Source: Prevotella sp. UBA2754 (lineage in GTDB: Bacteria; Bacteroidota; Bacteroidia; Bacteroidales; Bacteroidaceae). Taken from it: 64,000 bases of DNA. The notes under the pieces are model-generated. The model was not told the DNA's origin. It ran no database searches and saw only the letters and a list, made by a program, of their open reading frames with translations. The stretch is from positions 104,977-168,976 of the forward strand of contig DEJG01000019.1 of NCBI GenBank assembly GCA_002353295.1, given 5' to 3'. A program made the translations under genes and the position numbers. This document shows, piece by piece, positions 9,460 through 38,861 of the stretch. The first letter of the stretch is position 1. Every line of letters starts with the position of its first letter.

Positions 9460-9607
9460 TGTCGCGTTTTTACTGATTCTGTTGACTTATTTCTCTGATA
9501 AAGTTGCCTGCTTTCCTGCTTTTGTTGTCTCTGTTCCCAGGTTAGTGGACTTTGAACTTTATGATTATTTTTTTTGAAACTTGAAAATTGATTTTTGTGA
9601 AAAAAGT

Positions 9608-9638
9608 TTTGTCATTTCAATATAAAAAACTACTTTTG
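9608..9638 (+). promoter_or_regulatory. Primary-sigma promoter of the S8 protease pair
   Basis: TTTG (9608-9611), 19-nt spacer, TACTTTTG (9631-9638). Confidence 0.75.
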
Positions 9639-9669
9639 CAGTCGATATCGAACACAAAAAGAAATATTG

Positions 9670-11922
9670 ATGAAGAAAATATTTTTGATAGCAGCATTCA
9701 TCCTGTCTGTAATAGGTGTGTGGGCACAAAAGGCAGATCCAGACAAGTTGACGTTCTACTTGATGGACAAGGTCAGCGCTTACAACCGACAGGCGGCTGC
9801 AGCCCACCGCGCTGGAGAGACAGCTAAAGACCAGTTACTGCTGGTATTGGTGCAGGCAGATTCTGAGGAAGTGCTGACCGGTGCGGGGTGTATGGTGCTT
9901 GATCATGTGGACGATGTATATTTTACATTACTTTATCTCAGCCAAATAGCAGAACTGACACAGAACGACCGGATCCAGCGCATAGAACTGAATCCCATCG
10001 GGAGAAAACCGCAAATGGATGTCACCTCGGCACTGGTGAAAGCCGACAAAACTACGGATAAGGAAAAAATAGGCTCAGGATTGACCCAGGCTTACGACGG
10101 TACGGGAGTACTGGTTGGCATCTGTGATACGGGATTTGACTTCATGCATCCGATGTTTCATAAAGCCGATGGGACAACGCGCATCAAGTGGGCCTGGGAT
10201 GCCTGCACGGGACGAGGTGCCACAGAGGGCTACCTTGGTATCGGTTCGCTTTATGACACACCCGAGAAACTGGCTAAGGCTCATGGCACGCGTGATTCGA
10301 TGGCATACCATGGGACGCATGTGGCAGGTATCGCAGCAGGAAGTAGCGTAGTGGGGGGCAAATACCGTGGTATAGCCACTGGTGCCGACATCGCCCTATT
10401 CCATAATGAAATGGCCATGCTGAACGGAACGGATTTCATGAATATGTTTTCGGATCAGGTGGAAAAGGAATTGGAAGCCGTGAAGAACAAACAGGAAGTG
10501 AAGGATATCCTGGCCATGGGAAAGACCGAAAAACTGGATTACTCCGTGGTTTACCTCTTGGGTATCAAACATTTTTTCGACTATGCCGACGAACACCACA
10601 TGCCAGCAGTATTGAACTGCAGTTTCGGAAGTATGCAATCGTTGTGGAAAGACGATGAGCTGGAACAGAAAATCTACGATACGATGGCTGCCAAAGAGGG
10701 ACATCTGATAGTGGTAGCTGCAGGCAACAACGGAAACAAAGACTATTATCGCCATAAAAAGGCAGGGGAAGTGCTGAAGGGTGACACTCTGATTAACAGT
10801 GGGAAATTCTACTTTACAGCTCCTACGGGCAAGAACTTCAAACTCATTCTCCGCCTGGATGATGCCAAACATACGGAGATTACGTTTGAACCCAAAGAGT
10901 ATGACGAAGATAAAGATATAGAATTCAAAACGACGGACGTGGCATCGTATTTTTTGAATAGTGTCAAGAAAAAGAAATATAATGACCAGTTGACAGTTTG
11001 GGAAGTGGAATATAGCTTGCCGTTCGCCGGATTCGTGCACGGAGAGCCTGCCGTTGCCCTCACCATTGAAGGCGAAGCGGAAATCATTCTGCATACAGAT
11101 GAAAGGGCTACCTATTTTAAGAATGCCAAGGCGGTGAACTGTCCCTACACTTTGGGAACGCCGGGCAGTTACGACAAGGTGCTGACCGTAGGAGCTACCA
11201 ATCATCGGGCGAACTTTACCAATCTAAAGGGTAAAACTGAAACATCGAACGATAGCAACAAGAATCCTTTCGGGAGTATCATAAGCTGGAGTTCGGCAGG
11301 ACCCACTTTCAAGGGAACCGTCAAGCCCGAAGTCACGGCTCCTGGATTCAATGTCATTTCATGTCTGAACAGTAATCTTCAGAAAGAAATATTCAATAAG
11401 GCGAATATTCAGGACAACCTGATAGAGAAGTGGACGAGTGGAGGTCGCGACTATTACATGATGGCTACGTCGGGCACATCGATGGCAACACCTGTGGTGA
11501 CTGGTATCATGGCACTCTGGTTGCAGGCTGATCCTACGCTGAATTACGACAAGGTGATGAAGATCATTAAATCGACGGCTACGAAACTGGATGCTGCACC
11601 AAGTGAAGTAGGTAGTATTTACGGATATGGCGAAATTGACGCTTATCAGGGACTGCTGAAGGTGCTGGAGGGAAAAGGCGGTACAAATATCGCCCATTTG
11701 TCGAAACATCCAGTTCGGGCAACACTTCAGGGGAACACGCTCCGGATAGAAGGCATCAGCGGACCTACGCAAGTGACACTATACAGTATGTCGGGACGTG
11801 TAGTGATGAAGGTTACGACAGAGAACGGACAAATAGAACTCCCAAGACTTCCTGCTGCGGTCTATGCCGTGCAGGTGGGGAATATGGGGTCAACACTAAT
11901 AAGAGTTGTATCATTTTACTAG
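9670..11922 (+). CDS. S8 subtilisin-like serine peptidase with T9SS-type C-terminal domain
   Basis: ICDTG, HGTHVAG, AAGNNG, GTSMATP; signal peptide; tail with LYSMSGRVV and LPAAVYAVQV. Confidence 0.92.
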   Translation: MKKIFLIAAFILSVIGVWAQKADPDKLTFYLMDKVSAYNRQAAAAHRAGETAKDQLLLVLVQADSEEVLTGAGCMVLDHVDDVYFTLLYLSQIAELTQNDRIQRIELNPIGRKPQMDVTSALVKADKTTDKEKIGSGLTQAYDGTGVLVGICDTGFDFMHPMFHKADGTTRIKWAWDACTGRGATEGYLGIGSLYDTPEKLAKAHGTRDSMAYHGTHVAGIAAGSSVVGGKYRGIATGADIALFHNEMAMLNGTDFMNMFSDQVEKELEAVKNKQEVKDILAMGKTEKLDYSVVYLLGIKHFFDYADEHHMPAVLNCSFGSMQSLWKDDELEQKIYDTMAAKEGHLIVVAAGNNGNKDYYRHKKAGEVLKGDTLINSGKFYFTAPTGKNFKLILRLDDAKHTEITFEPKEYDEDKDIEFKTTDVASYFLNSVKKKKYNDQLTVWEVEYSLPFAGFVHGEPAVALTIEGEAEIILHTDERATYFKNAKAVNCPYTLGTPGSYDKVLTVGATNHRANFTNLKGKTETSNDSNKNPFGSIISWSSAGPTFKGTVKPEVTAPGFNVISCLNSNLQKEIFNKANIQDNLIEKWTSGGRDYYMMATSGTSMATPVVTGIMALWLQADPTLNYDKVMKIIKSTATKLDAAPSEVGSIYGYGEIDAYQGLLKVLEGKGGTNIAHLSKHPVRATLQGNTLRIEGISGPTQVTLYSMSGRVVMKVTTENGQIELPRLPAAVYAVQVGNMGSTLIRVVSFY

Positions 11923-35479: not shown

Positions 35480-35570
35480 CAAAGGTACAAATAAATCTGT
35501 AAACTGTAAACGTTTACGCAAGAAAAATAGTATAATTCGAATTATTTCATGCATTTTATTCGTACTTTTG
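35480..35570. promoter_or_regulatory. Divergent promoters with a LacI-type palindrome
   Basis: Minus TACCTTTG 35487-35480; perfect GTAAACGTTTAC 35506-35517; plus TACTTTTG 35563-35570. Confidence 0.7.
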
Positions 35571-35598: not shown

Positions 35599-35949
35599 AT
35601 GATGAGTAAATTTTTACTTTTTTGTGGAATGTGCATGTTGCCGATGATAGCAGTTGCAAATGGAACAGAACCAGAAAAAGTTCAGGCCAGCGAACTTCAA
35701 AAGATTACATTTGAAGGTGACAATGTAATTTTGCATTTCAAGGATGGTTCAAAGGCAGATTTAGTGAAGGACATGACAGAAATTGTCATCGACTTCAGTA
35801 ATCCTACGAATATTGAAACATTACGTCAGATAGAGTCTCTTAAAGGACAATCCGTTTACAATCTCCAAGGTCAGCAGATAGGCCAAGGTGTAGAAGGTTT
35901 GAAGAAGGGGCTTTATATCATTGGTGGCAAGAAGGTGATTATTAAATAA
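35599..35949 (+). CDS. Small secreted protein: signal peptide, ~45-aa beta module, T9SS-type CTD
   Basis: Tail TNIETLRQ..SVYNLQGQQI..LKKGLYIIGGKKVIIK is a typical Prevotella CTD. Confidence 0.8.
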   Translation: MMSKFLLFCGMCMLPMIAVANGTEPEKVQASELQKITFEGDNVILHFKDGSKADLVKDMTEIVIDFSNPTNIETLRQIESLKGQSVYNLQGQQIGQGVEGLKKGLYIIGGKKVIIK

Positions 35950-38861
35950 TGAGAGGAAAACACGCTATGAAAAGACTGATGTCGTTTTTTACGCTGCTTG
36001 TCCTGATGTTGGGACTGAGTCAGAGCATGAATGCACAGACATGGGAATTTGCAATACTTGATGCTAATGATGCAGAATTGATGGATAAGGATGCCAATTG
36101 GTATCACAGCAAAGAATCAAAGAAAAATCGCTATAGTTATACTAAGGCACTTGATAAAGCTGCGGTTACAGCCAATGGTCAGGAAATAGCATATACAAAG
36201 GGTTTGTTATTTTCTATTGACGCAGTTGAATCTGGCGAAGGTAATTTGCGTGCTGGCAACGACACCTCTAACAAGCGTATGTGGTTGGCTGGAAAATCAA
36301 AGATTACTATTCCTGGATTGAAAGCAGGAATGCAAATCACGGTATCTTGTATGTCCTCTAGCAAAACAGAGGCTCGTTGTATTAATACAACTAATATCAC
36401 AGCAGTTTCTGGTGACTTCGGTACAAAGAAAAAGGGTGATGGTTCTGCCTCTACTAATGTTGGTACAGTAACTGCAGATGGAGATGTTGTACTTACTATG
36501 GATGGTGCTATGTATATCTATATGATTAAAGTGGAGGATCCAAATGAGGATGTAGAAGGTGGGAATGATGGCGAAGGTGGAGAAACGACGCCAACCACTA
36601 ACGATCTTTCTACCTCAGCTAACTCTATGAAGAATCAGGCTGTGCTGAAACTCAAGGATGGTACCAACAAGTACTATAACACCGAGTCATTGCAGAGTAT
36701 TGATTTTGATGACAACAAAGTTAAGGTTGTTTATGACGCTCAGACAGCCTATACATTTGAAGATCAGGTTGCTGGTATTGGCTTTAATAAAGCAGAGAAG
36801 CAGCAGTCAGGTGAGGTGGTGAATATTGATGGCAAGGTGAAAATTACAGAGTATAACGGCTGGTTAGAGTCCGCCTATGTGAAGTTCGACTTGCTTGATG
36901 GTGCATCTTCCTATAATGTATATTATAAAGGTGGCGATATAACAACTTATAAGGCTATTGACAATAAGTTGGTACGTAACTATGGCACTTTTGGTCGTGC
37001 TGATGTGGTTGGTTTGAAGGCTGCTGCAGACTATGCTATCAAGGTTGTTCCGGTTAATGCGAACGGTACTGAATTGGTTGATAATGCTAATGAGGTGACA
37101 GGCTTGGTAGTGAAGAGCTATAGTCGCGAGGGCTTTGCCTTCATGAACGGTTTCACACCAGGTGCTTACAATTATGATGGTACATTGAAGAGTGGTGCCA
37201 AGGTACTCTATGTGACTAAGAACACTGCCAAGACTATTTCTACCACTGTGGCAGGGGCTGAGGAGAATCCCTGTGTAGGTATTCAGGCCATTATCGACGC
37301 CTATCAGAAGGGTAAGGACACTACTCCTATTGCTTTCCGTCTTATCGGTTTGATTGAAAAGGACGACCTCGATGGTATCAGTAGCTCTTCTGAGGGTATC
37401 CAGATTAAGGGTAAGAATGCTGATGCGCTGATGCCTATCACCATAGAAGGTGTCGGTGATGACGCCACGGTACGTGGCTTCGGTTTTCTGGTACGCAATT
37501 CTAAGGGCGTTGAGTTCCGTAACTTTGCTGTTATGCGCTGCATGGACGATGGAATCTCTTTGGATACAGACAACTCAAATATCTGGGTTCACCACACAGA
37601 TCAGTTCTATGGTAAGCATGGTTCTGGTGACCATGCTAAGGGTGATGGTGCAGTCGACGTGAAATCTGACTCTAAGTTTGTGACTGTTAGCTACAACCGT
37701 TTTTGGGATACTGGTAAGAGCAATATGTTCGGTATGAAGAGCGAGTCAGGTCCTAACTACATCAGTTACGACCACAACTGGTTCGACCACTCAGACTCTC
37801 GTCATCCACGTGTTCGCACGATGACAGTTCACGTATGGAACAACTACTTTGATAATGTTGCCAAGTATGGTGTTGGTGCTACCACAGGTTCTAGCGTTTT
37901 CGTAGAGAGCAATTACTTCCTGAAGACAAAGAAGCCAATCCTCAGTTCACTTCAAGGTACTGATGGAATGGGTTCCAAGGGTACTTTCTCGGGCGAGAAT
38001 GGCGGTATGATTAAAGCCTATGGAAACTATATGGATAAGTCTGCTGCTCATTTCAGCTACTATAATCAGGATAATCCTTCTGCTAAGGGCTATGATGCTT
38101 ATGAGGTAACCAATCGTAATACCACGATTCCTGAAACGGAGAAGACTTTGGTAGGTGGTACTACCTATAACAATTTTGATACCGATCCTTCTAAGATGTA
38201 CAAGTACACAGCAGTTGAAGCTGAGGATGTTCCTGCTCTCATAACTGGTTACTACGGCGCCGGTCGTATGAATCATGGTGACTTCAAGTATACTTTCAAA
38301 GATAATGTTGGTGTCGATGCAGACGACTCTGCCTATGATGAAATATTGGGTGGTAAGCTCGATAGCTATAAGTCTTCGTTCGTAGGTTTCTTTGGTGAAG
38401 ACAATTCCAGCCAAGGTGGTGACCAAGGCAACCAAGGGGATCATCAGGGAGATGACCAAGGTGGAGAGCAAGGTGGCGAAACTACTCCAGAAGGAACTAT
38501 TTTTGCAAAGTTTGATGGTGCTCCTTCTGTTAGTATGTTCAAAGTAACTGGAGAGTATGGTGATGGAAAGTCGACTTATAAAGGTACTTACGCAAAACAA
38601 GGTGCAAAACTGAATAGCAAAACTACAGTTACTTTTACTCCTGCTAAGAACTATAATATGACTTTGGTATTGTCTACCAGTAAAACGTGTCATGATGTAA
38701 AGTTGAATGGAACATTGACGACTGTTTCTGGAAAGGAATCTACTGAAGGAAAGTATTATGAAATGCAGCCTATTGCCATTTCCGCAAATACTGAATACAG
38801 GATTACTAAGGGGAGCAGTGAAGGAATACTGATGTTTATCGTCCTCGAGCCCATAGAGTAA
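35949..38861 (+). CDS. Multidomain PL1 pectate lyase with probable C-terminal CBM77-like module
   Basis: IWVHH, DGAVDVK, RHPRVR, VHVWNNYF. ATG overlaps the upstream TAA; alternative start 35967. The C-terminal ~115 aa resemble CBM77 from recall. Confidence 0.85.
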   Translation: MRGKHAMKRLMSFFTLLVLMLGLSQSMNAQTWEFAILDANDAELMDKDANWYHSKESKKNRYSYTKALDKAAVTANGQEIAYTKGLLFSIDAVESGEGNLRAGNDTSNKRMWLAGKSKITIPGLKAGMQITVSCMSSSKTEARCINTTNITAVSGDFGTKKKGDGSASTNVGTVTADGDVVLTMDGAMYIYMIKVEDPNEDVEGGNDGEGGETTPTTNDLSTSANSMKNQAVLKLKDGTNKYYNTESLQSIDFDDNKVKVVYDAQTAYTFEDQVAGIGFNKAEKQQSGEVVNIDGKVKITEYNGWLESAYVKFDLLDGASSYNVYYKGGDITTYKAIDNKLVRNYGTFGRADVVGLKAAADYAIKVVPVNANGTELVDNANEVTGLVVKSYSREGFAFMNGFTPGAYNYDGTLKSGAKVLYVTKNTAKTISTTVAGAEENPCVGIQAIIDAYQKGKDTTPIAFRLIGLIEKDDLDGISSSSEGIQIKGKNADALMPITIEGVGDDATVRGFGFLVRNSKGVEFRNFAVMRCMDDGISLDTDNSNIWVHHTDQFYGKHGSGDHAKGDGAVDVKSDSKFVTVSYNRFWDTGKSNMFGMKSESGPNYISYDHNWFDHSDSRHPRVRTMTVHVWNNYFDNVAKYGVGATTGSSVFVESNYFLKTKKPILSSLQGTDGMGSKGTFSGENGGMIKAYGNYMDKSAAHFSYYNQDNPSAKGYDAYEVTNRNTTIPETEKTLVGGTTYNNFDTDPSKMYKYTAVEAEDVPALITGYYGAGRMNHGDFKYTFKDNVGVDADDSAYDEILGGKLDSYKSSFVGFFGEDNSSQGGDQGNQGDHQGDDQGGEQGGETTPEGTIFAKFDGAPSVSMFKVTGEYGDGKSTYKGTYAKQGAKLNSKTTVTFTPAKNYNMTLVLSTSKTCHDVKLNGTLTTVSGKESTEGKYYEMQPIAISANTEYRITKGSSEGILMFIVLEPIE
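38412..38480 (+). repeat. Gly/Gln/Asp linker repeat in the pectate lyase
   Basis: QGGDQGNQGDHQGDDQGGEQGGE; GGETTP also ends the earlier acidic linker. Confidence 0.75.

Follow-up and report, generated by a model that had tools for sequence, protein, structure and literature searches.

A small protein with a T9SS-type tail may act as the secretion and anchoring partner of a CTD-less pectate lyase in Prevotella

A small gene overlaps the start of a pectate lyase gene

Within the 64,000-nucleotide stretch of DNA that we analyzed (the window), which comes from a rumen Prevotella, a gene for a 116-residue protein (the mini-gene) runs directly into a gene for a pectate lyase (Table 1). The initial annotation had both reading frames right, and the TAATG that joins the stop of the mini-gene to the start of the lyase frame is present in the sequence. 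Homologues of the lyase align only from residue 7 onwards, so the ATG at 35967 is probably where it really begins. With that start, the gap between the two genes would be 17 nt, which is typical of the family; the mini-gene in the window lies 1-18 nt upstream of the lyase. There is no intergenic room for a second promoter between the genes. A candidate -7 box precedes the mini-gene; TAnnTTTG has 61 matches in the window versus 37.6 expected.

Table 1. Features of the mini-gene and the lyase gene (window coordinates; an arrow marks predicted cleavage)
Feature	Position	Strand	Remarks
-7 promoter box, Bacteroidetes-type (TACTTTTG)	35563..35570	+	28 nt before mini-gene start; consensus match only
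Mini-gene	35599..35949	+	Signal peptide, 48-aa beta module, and short T9SS CTD
Mini-protein signal peptide, aa 1-20 (MMSKFLLFCGMCMLPMIAVA)	35599..35658	+	Read from sequence
Mini-protein module, aa 21-69	35659..35805	+	Four beta strands: 33-39, 42-47, 52-56, 61-64
Predicted PorU cleavage/attachment motif S-N-P-T↓N-I	35797..35814	+	Family consensus T-T-G-I
Short-type T9SS CTD, mini-protein aa 70-116	35806..35946	+	Helix 72-80, then four strands
PL1 pectate lyase gene	35949..38861	+	970 aa; type I signal peptide (…SQSMNA↓QT), no Cys, no CTD
Lyase N-terminal beta domain, aa 30-200	36036..36548	+	Missing in many orthologues
Internal "acceptor" module, aa 222-290	36612..36818	+	int.hmm match, 93 bits
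FN3-like beta-sandwich, about aa 291-385	36819..37103	+	Start point of paralogues without the mini-gene
PL1 catalytic core, aa 498-657	37440..37919	+	PF00544, 83.2 bits (cut-off 24)
CBM77, aa 852-960	38502..38828	+	PF18283, 46.2 bits (cut-off 25)

The mini-protein was originally described as little more than a signal peptide, a small module, and a CTD, and our reading agrees. AF2 gave pLDDT values below 50 over residues 1-25 and of 72-77 for the module in the free mini-protein. We set the end of the module from the NPT↓NIE motif, taking the cleavage motif in PMC11969387 as the analogue; once the CTD is removed, the mature protein is predicted to consist of the module alone. Scans of the mini-protein against Pfam and NCBIfam returned only sub-threshold noise, and a Foldseek search of the PDB with its model found nothing at E < 0.2 (HBP35 of Porphyromonas gingivalis, at rank 4, had a nonsignificant E value of 0.62). 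The mini-gene has 48 homologues of 100-149 aa, and the family forms 330 clusters at 50% identity. The median dN/dS of the mini-gene is 0.24, so it is under purifying selection.

We assigned the lyase to PL1 by its PF00544 match, which is above the cut-off; we take NIWVHH and SRHPRVR to be PL1 motifs. Orthologues that lack the N-terminal beta domain begin at about profile position 215, and the equivalent region of a relative, P0121, is modeled by AF2 with pLDDT above 90. In the same model, the internal module has six short strands. The protein ends 10 residues past CBM77. That it has no CTD, as had been claimed, holds even for a cryptic one: TIGR04183 and PF18962 did not match the lyase, and the best domain score from a short-CTD HMM that we built was -1.3, at an internal position. 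Neither the mini-protein nor the lyase contains a dockerin or a cohesin according to the Pfam scan. The mini-protein has no lipobox cysteine before its cleavage region, and cysteine is absent from the cleavage site of both signal peptides (…IAVA↓NG in the mini-protein and …SMNA↓QT in the lyase), so neither protein qualifies as a surface lipoprotein (SPII signal peptide plus lipoprotein export signal). The lyase thus carries no CTD and no lipid anchor, and its pectin-binding CBM77 sits at the free C-terminus.

The mini-protein ends in a probable short T9SS CTD

The tail of the mini-protein contains, in order, NPT↓NIE, VYNLQGQ, KGLYII, and GGKKVIIK, and AF2 models its helix and four strands with pLDDT values of 83-89. 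The tail scores just 11.5 bits against TIGR04183 (E = 0.22; the cut-off is 23), and the Pfam scan found no match to PF18962 in the mini-protein. However, short CTDs are known to escape the curated models, and the authors who described them in Prevotella intermedia made their own HMMs (PMC11969387). In that species, short CTDs undergo cleavage and glycosylation, and they consist of PT/GI, 6-11 aa, motif B (Y..G), 1-6 aa, and then motifs D (GxY-I) and E (K/R) (PMC11969387). In the mini-protein, the stretch between the cleavage motif and motif B is 13 residues long (ETLRQIESLKGQS), and that between motifs B and D is 9 residues long (IGQGVEGLK); both gaps fall between the short-CTD and long-CTD ranges of that study.

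Several other observations bear on the tail. It occupies the extreme C-terminus (residues 70-116 of 116) of a protein that begins with a hydrophobic Sec signal, and similar tails lie at the very C-terminus of dozens of large open reading frames across the genus. With the short-CTD HMM, at least 30 large open reading frames of the same genome share this tail, 0-4 residues from their ends. An orthologous mini-protein with a long CTD, from genome G013, passes TIGR04183 at 33.7 bits. The genome also encodes SprA (TIGR04189, 2585 bits) and PorU (NF033707, 869 bits plus 144 bits in a single 1179-aa frame). By its motifs and its relatives, the tail is most likely a short Prevotella-type T9SS CTD, although it lies below the TIGR04183 cut-off.

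The mini-protein and the lyase contain probably related modules

The initial annotation had noted a resemblance between the core of the mini-protein and positions 36639-36737 in the lyase gene, with the shared elements in permuted order. The location proved real, but the similarity is weak and the permutation did not hold up. BLASTP of the mini-protein against the lyase gave nothing significant: the best hit (E = 0.81) was elsewhere in the lyase. Profile-profile alignment paired residues 31-69 of the mini-protein with residues 246-282 of the lyase (E = 0.014). With broader alignments, the E value was 8e-4 and the score was 22.4, versus 9.6 ± 2.1 when the columns were shuffled 200 times; no shuffle scored as high as 22.4. 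We rejected the permuted order because the profile-profile alignment is collinear; the apparent permutation arises because this copy lacks the family's first strand (QTVTIDG). The two modules are probably distantly related, with modest support (E of about 1e-3).

The modules have also diverged together. In a mirror-tree comparison, the correlation between the mini-protein and the internal module was 0.77. The partial correlation given the catalytic domain was 0.54 (p = 0.001), part of which could stem from similarly fast rates in two short modules, and the partial correlation of the mini-protein with the catalytic domain given the internal module was just 0.10. Thus, judging from these trees, the mini-protein's module co-diverges with the internal module of the lyase beyond what the catalytic domain accounts for.

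The mini-gene accompanies the internal module across genomes

Among 301 genomes of the same genus, 122 contain the mini-gene, and nearly all of these have just one copy; the other 179 genomes lack it. The distribution of the mini-gene follows the internal module of the lyase. In the same-genus genomes, the mini-gene is directly upstream of all 119 lyases that bear the internal module, but it is beside none of the 31 lyase paralogues that lack it (Fisher p = 8e-33). Among 24 genomes without the mini-gene, 20 have no such lyase. These counts answer two questions that followed from the original proposal: CTD-less lyases with the module do co-occur with the mini-gene, and the mini-gene is not equally common beside CTD-bearing lyases; most of the 31 module-less paralogues have a C-terminal tail of their own.

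We also fetched 60 loci. All of them have a lyase homologue downstream of the mini-gene (59 loci, or one fused to it in the remaining locus), the gap between the two ranges from -23 to +76 nt, and no lyase ends in a CTD. The pair is found in at least six unrelated genomic contexts. By comparison, we tallied the tails of 22 distinct module-less paralogues that could be read to the C-terminus: 10 have their own short CTD, 5 have another conserved C-terminal tail, 3 have a dockerin, 3 have an N-terminal mini-like module fused to FN3, and 1 has nothing. Among these lyase sequences, then, a CTD in cis and the internal module are distributed in a complementary way.

Two kinds of exceptions were seen. 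First, in genomes G363 and G468, the mini-gene precedes proteins that are not lyases (724 and 1308 aa) but that start with a module of the internal type, which implies that the partner of the mini-protein is the module and not the enzyme. Second, three weak and divergent mini-like genes (in G041, G193, and G306) have no adjacent partner.

Fusions, dockerin variants, and a second gene pair

Some relatives are natural fusions, with a signal peptide, the module, a dockerin, and the lyase in one protein and no mini-gene upstream. The dockerin (PF00404) was identified in P0075 (31.4 bits), P0115 (40.3 bits), and P0121 (24.9 bits), and it is also present in variants of the mini-protein of 290-370 aa. 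We considered whether the dockerin-bearing homologues might be Firmicutes genes, but their neighbors and their N-terminal modules are Prevotella-like. Across the family, the N-terminal module of the mini-protein is constant while the C-terminal part varies (a short CTD, a long CTD, or an extra domain and a dockerin), which fits a binding piece with an interchangeable anchor. Because fusions and dockerin-type variants lack a CTD, the role of the module does not strictly depend on the T9SS. In the AF2 model of the fusion P0121, the N-terminal module has pLDDT values of 63-73, as compared to 72-77 in the free mini-protein; since it is no more confident in the fusion, the model gives no sign that the module docks in cis. 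Together with the non-lyase partners, the fusions suggest that the module is the point of contact.

A second pair of genes has the same layout. Both this genome and Segatella copri contain a mini-gene next to a GH26|GH5 mannanase gene, and in 12 of 12 loci, the GH26|GH5 orthologues are preceded by a gene for a 151-aa protein with a signal peptide, a module, and a long CTD. The modules of the lyase pair and of the GH26|GH5 pair have weak sequence similarity (hhalign P of 0.002-0.03).

A proposed split cargo and its alternatives

Overall, we propose that the two genes work together as a single unit in which the mini-protein supplies the T9SS signal and the surface anchor in trans (probability of roughly 0.55). 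Both proteins would reach the periplasm via Sec, and the 48-aa module of the mini-protein would bind the roughly 60-aa internal module of the lyase. The short CTD of the mini-protein would then be recognized by the T9SS (PorV/SprA); PorU would cut off the CTD and the new C-terminus (at about Thr69) would be joined to a surface glycolipid. The lyase would most likely be exported together with its adaptor, as a folded heterodimer, and its N-proximal end would tether it noncovalently to the cell surface. We infer the binding, the co-export, the cleavage, and the anchoring. In the AF2 models, each module forms a small beta-sheet on its own, with moderate confidence. The initial annotation had suggested such a partnership in trans through a shared module; the comparative evidence (the CTD scan, the co-occurrence, the fusions, and the non-lyase partners) favors it, apart from the permuted detail. 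The mechanism that it put forward, beta-strand complementation and a piggy-back ride through the translocon, is hypothetical. In the literature that we searched, with incomplete coverage, we found no description of noncovalent heterodimer export via the T9SS or of a CTD that acts in trans.

We considered four alternatives. First, the mini-protein might be exported alone to become a 48-residue glycolipid-linked peg, onto which the lyase docks via its internal module after leaving the cell in another way. The other routes for the lyase could be vesicles, lysis, or an unknown pathway. The co-occurrence data fit an anchor of this kind equally well, the CTD-less dockerin variants and the fusions show that tethering is separable from passage through the T9SS, and we found no earlier case of a heterodimer exported by the T9SS in the literature that we searched. 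However, no other route across the outer membrane is evident for a 970-aa protein with a type I signal peptide and no lipid anchor. The genes are tightly coupled in translation, with gaps of 3-30 nt or overlaps, which points to assembly of the pair during synthesis or within the periplasm, and folded cargo does pass the SprA translocon (PMC9251779). We consider this alternative unlikely.

Second, there might be no physical link: the mini-protein could be an independent small surface protein of the T9SS, such as a binding or decoy peptide connected with pectin, whose gene simply shares a transcript with that of the lyase. The self-contained AF2 folds of both modules are in line with this. But the mini-gene is associated with the internal module and not with pectate lyase function (it accompanies 0 of 31 module-less lyases and does accompany module-bearing proteins that are not lyases), fusions exist, and the two modules co-diverge specifically, so we give this idea little credence.

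Third, the mini-protein might be a periplasmic escort, regulator, or signaling ligand of the lyase's module or of a sensor, and its CTD might serve for disposal or signaling. The model for this is PorA-PorY of P. gingivalis, and control could be over folding, activity, or expression. PorA is the smallest verified type A cargo, and its CTD is the ligand of the sensor kinase PorY (PMC12152298); also, the fusions carry the module in cis without a CTD. On the other hand, 179 of 301 genomes have no mini-gene, its distribution follows a single cargo module instead of the T9SS or a regulator, it is the N-terminal module that is conserved while the type of CTD is interchangeable, and no sensor kinase is among the conserved neighbors. 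Such a role seems very improbable.

Finally, both fused and split forms occur, as they would if the mini-gene were a functionless, decaying remnant of gene fission or rearrangement, but this is contradicted by its conservation (330 family clusters at the 50% identity level, one intact copy per genome in 122 genomes, a median dN/dS of 0.24, and signal peptide and CTD motifs that are intact throughout) and is highly improbable.

More tentatively, and at somewhat less than even odds, the split cargo with a mini-protein in trans may be a general form of T9SS export in Prevotella and Segatella, in which dedicated mini-proteins (a signal peptide, a beta module of about 50 aa, and a CTD) grip a matching small module near the N-terminus of CTD-less CAZymes, pass with them through the SprA translocon as folded heterodimers, and become their glycolipid anchors once the CTD is removed. 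If so, enzymes could be mounted by their N-terminal ends with their C-terminal binding modules free, which is impossible with a CTD in cis. To our knowledge, a CTD in cis is the only criterion now used to predict T9SS cargo. If the tag can come from a separate partner, then predictions of Bacteroidota secretomes miss a class of surface enzymes, and many "periplasmic" CAZymes with type I signal peptides, from Prevotella and Segatella of the rumen and the human gut, would be reassigned to the surface. The GH26|GH5_4 "sentinel" glycanase of S. copri, which is now under study as a target for foods given to malnourished children, would be one such enzyme, and its route to the surface would be explained. 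The 48-residue peg and its acceptor module might also provide a compact natural display system for Bacteroidota surfaces.

Comparison with known systems

Canonical type A cargo of the T9SS has a signal peptide, a passenger, and a CTD, and depends on the PorV shuttle, the SprA translocon, the PorU sortase, and a glycolipid anchor. The mini-protein resembles the short-CTD class of type A cargo (PMC11969387) in its Sec signal peptide and its short-CTD motifs. Unlike other type A cargo, its passenger is only about 48 residues, and the enzyme is a separate, CTD-less polypeptide encoded immediately downstream. PorA of P. gingivalis, a 246-aa regulator of the secretion system (PMC12152298), is likewise a small T9SS cargo whose function is not in an enzymatic passenger. 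However, the mini-protein is half the size of PorA, most genomes in the genus do not encode it, and it is linked to a single cargo module; its conserved part is the N-terminal module instead of the CTD.

The S. copri GH26|GH5_4 glycanase is similar to the lyase in several respects: it has a type I signal peptide with no cysteine, it lacks both a lipoprotein export signal and a CTD, and it starts with a small module (a 60-aa DUF) (PMC12704710). The enzyme families differ, and sequence similarity between the modules is weak. In the 2025 S. copri paper, the DUF is regarded as a spacer, lipid anchorage is guessed, and the enzyme's route to the outside is a matter of speculation; the upstream gene does not appear in the passages that we read (PMC12704710).

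Hitchhiker export is established elsewhere: the Tat system co-translocates subunits that have no signal, and peroxisomes import partners without a PTS (PMC9251779). As we propose for the lyase, a folded protein without a tag travels with a signal-bearing partner, but the machine and the membrane are different, and the T9SS case is undescribed in the literature that we searched. The proposed pairing of an enzyme module with an anchor module, held together noncovalently, is also reminiscent of cohesin and dockerin in cellulosomes, including those with CBM77-bearing PL1/PL9 enzymes in Ruminococcus flavefaciens. In the Prevotella pair, by contrast, the contact would be between two beta modules of about 50-60 aa, and the anchor would be a mini-protein that is processed by the T9SS.

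A pectate lyase without a sorting domain follows a small gene that probably carries one

The mini-gene and the lyase gene directly downstream encode proteins of very different size (see the table). Much as the initial annotation stated, the mini-protein appears to consist of a signal peptide (residues 1-20), a short segment (48 residues), and a C-terminal tail, ending in …VYNLQGQQIGQGVEGLKKGLYIIGGKKVIIK, that resembles the C-terminal domain (CTD) of type IX secretion system (T9SS) cargo. The lyase begins with a predicted type I signal peptide that lacks cysteine (…SQSMNA|QT) and ends 10 residues past its CBM77 match. It was also correctly described as lacking a CTD: neither the T9SS sorting-domain models nor a custom HMM for short CTDs, built from the tails of the mini-protein family, matched the lyase. 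The TAATG overlap of stop and start codons that had been reported is present in the sequence, but it is probably not where the lyase starts. Orthologues align only from residue 7 (Met7) of the lyase, which makes the ATG at 35967 the probable start codon and leaves a gap of 17-18 nt after the mini-gene's stop, the usual spacing in the family. The space between the two genes is too small for a separate lyase promoter.

Features of the gene pair and of other genes in the same genome (window coordinates, or coordinates on contigs C6 and C27, which lie outside the window)
Feature	Position	Strand	Description
Bacteroidetes -7 box	35563-35570	+	TACTTTTG, ahead of the mini-gene
Mini-gene	35599-35949	+	ORF, 116 aa
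Lyase gene	35949-38861	+	ORF, 970 aa, co-oriented with the mini-gene
PL1 pectate lyase domain	lyase aa 498-657	+	Pfam, 83 bits
CBM77	lyase aa 852-960	+	Pfam, 46 bits
Open frame with CTD	9601-11919	+	773 aa; C-terminal TIGR04183 long CTD, 27.2 bits
C27 pair	C27:178782-181546		151-aa protein overlapping a 770-aa GH26+GH5 enzyme by 4 nt
C6 pair	C6:211873-215694	-	164-aa PF18962-CTD protein 10 nt upstream of a 1105-aa SusD-like protein

The mini-protein tail as a T9SS CTD

By the curated model, the window's copy of the mini-protein does not carry the T9SS tail that was claimed for it: the tail scored 11.5 bits (E = 0.22) against TIGR04183, below the cutoff of 23. However, evidence beyond the curated model supports its assignment as a putative short CTD. 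Dozens of large ORFs from the same genus match its last ~50 residues at their very C terminus, and in its own genome, the tail profile matched no fewer than 30 ORFs (300-2980 aa), at 0-4 residues from the end. The long CTD of orthologous mini-proteins from other species does pass TIGR04183 (33.7 bits). A 2025 mass spectrometry study of Prevotella intermedia (PMC11969387) showed cleavage of such "short CTDs" and glycosylation of the mature C terminus; in these domains, motifs B, D, and E come after a cleavage consensus of PT/GI. The window tail reads NPT|NIE…YNLQGQ…KGLYII…GGKKVIIK, and the consensus at the cleavage position across the mini-protein family is T-T-G-I. The SprA translocon and the PorU sortase are encoded in the same genome. 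Processing in the manner of other cargo would leave the 48-aa module alone (residues ~21-69) as the mature mini-protein, with its C terminus linked to a surface glycolipid. The window also encodes ordinary cargo with a CTD in cis, as a long CTD closes the 773-aa frame (table).

Conservation of the pair

A collection of 5.8 billion proteins contained 48 homologues of the mini-protein of 100-149 aa, and a module-only profile retrieved 330 clusters (50% identity). In nearly all of these, a signal peptide is followed by the module at residues ~21-70 and then by a short or long CTD. Every metagenomic or genomic homologue that we looked up, down to 28-34% identity, had a PL1 lyase directly downstream, and the pair occurs in at least six unrelated neighborhoods. 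The median dN/dS of the mini-gene is 0.24 (128 pairs with 0.05 < dS < 1).

We surveyed 301 genomes sampled from a single genus, that of the window. Among the matches listed, 122 of the 301 genomes contained the module, in a single copy in all except one. At all 60 loci fetched, the next gene was a homologue of the window lyase (gap of -23 to +76 nt) or the module was fused to such a homologue, and none of these lyases had a CTD at its C terminus. In the reverse survey, we compared residues 225-400 of the lyase to the same 301 genomes and cross-matched the coordinates with the mini-genes. All 117 listed matches that included the internal module (lyase residues 222-290) had a mini-gene upstream, with two apparent misses resolved by inspection, as did two further matches whose internal module was too divergent for BLAST but was detectable by HMM. 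Overall, among the matches listed, the co-occurrence that the initial annotation had suggested surveying was 119 of 119 with the internal module and 0 of 31 for matches starting after it (Fisher p = 8e-33). The window-type lyase was absent altogether from 20 of 24 genomes without the mini-gene.

Three loci (L107, L108, and L109, from genomes G041, G193, and G306) have divergent mini-like genes (module E of 1e-7 to 1e-10) with a long CTD and no adjoining downstream partner. These genes could be orphans or decayed copies, or their partners may lie at another site.

A module, not an enzyme, as the probable partner

Lyase paralogues without the internal module begin directly with the FN3-like domain. 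Of 22 that were read to the C terminus, 10 have a short CTD of their own, 5 have another conserved tail (…NGKLIIxKNGKxYNAAGxxVK), and 3 have a dockerin. Another 3 have a mini-like module at the N terminus, joined directly to the FN3 domain, and the last one has none of these devices. Equal frequency of the mini-gene beside CTD-bearing enzymes, which had been named as an outcome that would refute the original proposal, was not observed. The mini-gene also precedes two proteins that are not lyases: a 724-aa protein without Pfam domains (G363, L105:999-3170) and a 1308-aa protein with BspA-type LRRs (G468, L106:1010-4933). Both have an internal-type module right behind the signal peptide. It seems that the module pair can be carried by different passengers, and judging from these sequences, the mini-gene's partner is the module rather than the enzyme. 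Taken together, the arrangements suggest that lyases without the module have their CTD in cis, and that for those with the module, the CTD is on the neighboring mini-protein.

The conserved tail had no match in NCBIfam and could act as a further signal for sorting or anchoring. It is found on many secreted polysaccharide lyases (L100, L101, L102, L103, and L123), which are lyase paralogues and neighboring PL genes of G016, G192, and G364. In L115, L116, and L118 (G249, G403, and G426), a mini-like module (…IVKGNVIDRKLTAMTIQTDSVSMAFDD…VVVAF) lies directly before FN3 and replaces the internal module; these lyases have neither a CTD nor a mini-gene.

Natural fusions occur among several close homologues of the lyase (P0075, P0121, P0115; G303); they comprise a signal peptide, a mini-type module, a dockerin (PF00404), and the remaining lyase, including the internal module, with no mini-gene upstream. 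In other genomes, upstream proteins of 290-370 aa combine the same N-terminal module with an extra domain of ~150 aa and a CTD or a double dockerin. Because the C-terminal parts vary while the N-terminal module stays, the module is the constant element, and the C-terminal part would be an interchangeable device for anchoring or targeting. Type I dockerins (PF00404) occur in the Prevotella lyases P0075, P0115, and P0121 and in enlarged mini-protein variants (dockerin loci L054, L076, L083, L085, L090, L091, L096, L098, L113, and L120), which would imply cohesin-like partners in these Bacteroidota.

Relatedness and codivergence of the two modules

The reported resemblance between the mini-protein's core and an internal segment of the lyase is invisible to pairwise BLASTP, which found no match between the modules, but it emerges from profile-profile comparison. 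Residues 31-69 of the mini-protein align with residues 246-282 of the lyase (E = 0.014), and with broad alignments (169 and 99 nonredundant sequences), E fell to 8e-4 with a score of 22.4. Column-shuffled controls scored 9.6 ± 2.1 (maximum 21.9; 0 of 200 reached 22.4), and a reversed alignment scored 14.1. The permuted order of elements that had been described was not borne out: the alignment is collinear (…ITFxGDxVxLxF…DMxxVxIxF versus …IDFxxxxVtV…y…VxxIsF), and the apparent permutation stems from the absence, in the window copy, of QTVTIDG, the first strand of the family.

AlphaFold2 predicted four strands for the mini-protein's module (pLDDT 70-77) and, after it, a helix and a CTD of four strands (83-89). 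For the fusion P0121, it predicted five strands for the N-terminal module (63-73) and six for the internal module (74-89). The predicted strand patterns of the modules are alike in the mini-protein and P0121, and confidence was not raised in the fusion. Foldseek found no significant match to the mini-protein model in the PDB.

Across 58 pairs, distances between mini modules correlated more closely with those between internal modules (r = 0.77) than with those between the catalytic regions of the same lyases (r = 0.65). Given the catalytic region, the partial correlation of the two modules was 0.54 (permutation p = 0.001), versus 0.10 for the converse, although two short, fast-evolving segments may correlate through rate alone.

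Two more pairs in the same genome

By their domain layout, the C27 and C6 pairs (table) are two more pairs of this design. The small C27 protein has a predicted signal peptide, a module, a TSTGI cleavage motif, and a long CTD (PF18962, 27.8 bits); its GH26+GH5 partner has a predicted type I signal peptide, an N-terminal module of ~60 aa, and no CTD. This type of pair was present in all 12 loci examined from other species of the genus (L125-L138). The SusD-like protein of C6 has a predicted type I signal peptide and neither a lipobox nor a CTD.

The C27 enzyme's start, …AQTDGDK…, contains the Q-T-D-G-D motif described for its orthologue in S. copri, the GH26|GH5_4 "sentinel" glycanase. A 2025 PNAS paper (PMC12704710) describes that motif in the S. 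copri enzyme, together with an SPaseI site and a DUF of 60 aa; according to the paper, the enzyme has neither a cysteine nor a lipoprotein export signal, and its export route is left open.

A proposed split T9SS cargo

The evidence for a conserved two-gene unit is good; the mechanism is a proposal. We favor, with a probability of roughly 0.55, a split T9SS cargo in which the mini-protein is the adaptor for the lyase. After Sec export, the mini module would bind the lyase's internal module. The CTD would direct the mini-protein to PorV/SprA, and the folded lyase would most likely travel with it; PorU would then swap the CTD for a glycolipid, so that the lyase would be tethered by its N-proximal part. 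A possible rationale is orientation: CBM77, at the lyase's C terminus, may work better distally, and a CTD in cis would fix the C terminus.

A functional tie between the two gene products by way of their modules is much more likely, and we consider it quite probable. In an alternative that we consider unlikely, the mini-protein would be only an anchor, on which the lyase docks after leaving by another route. A periplasmic escort or regulator, an unrelated cotranscribed protein, and a relic jointly share the remaining probability.

Comparison with known systems

The components (T9SS short CTD, PL1, CBM77, and dockerins) are already known. In the literature that we searched, which was not exhaustive, a CTD supplied by a separate dedicated partner was not described. 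Three known systems come closest to the split cargo: PorA, a small cargo whose role is not that of a passenger; tethering through cohesin and dockerin; and hitch-hiker export, whether by Tat or into peroxisomes.
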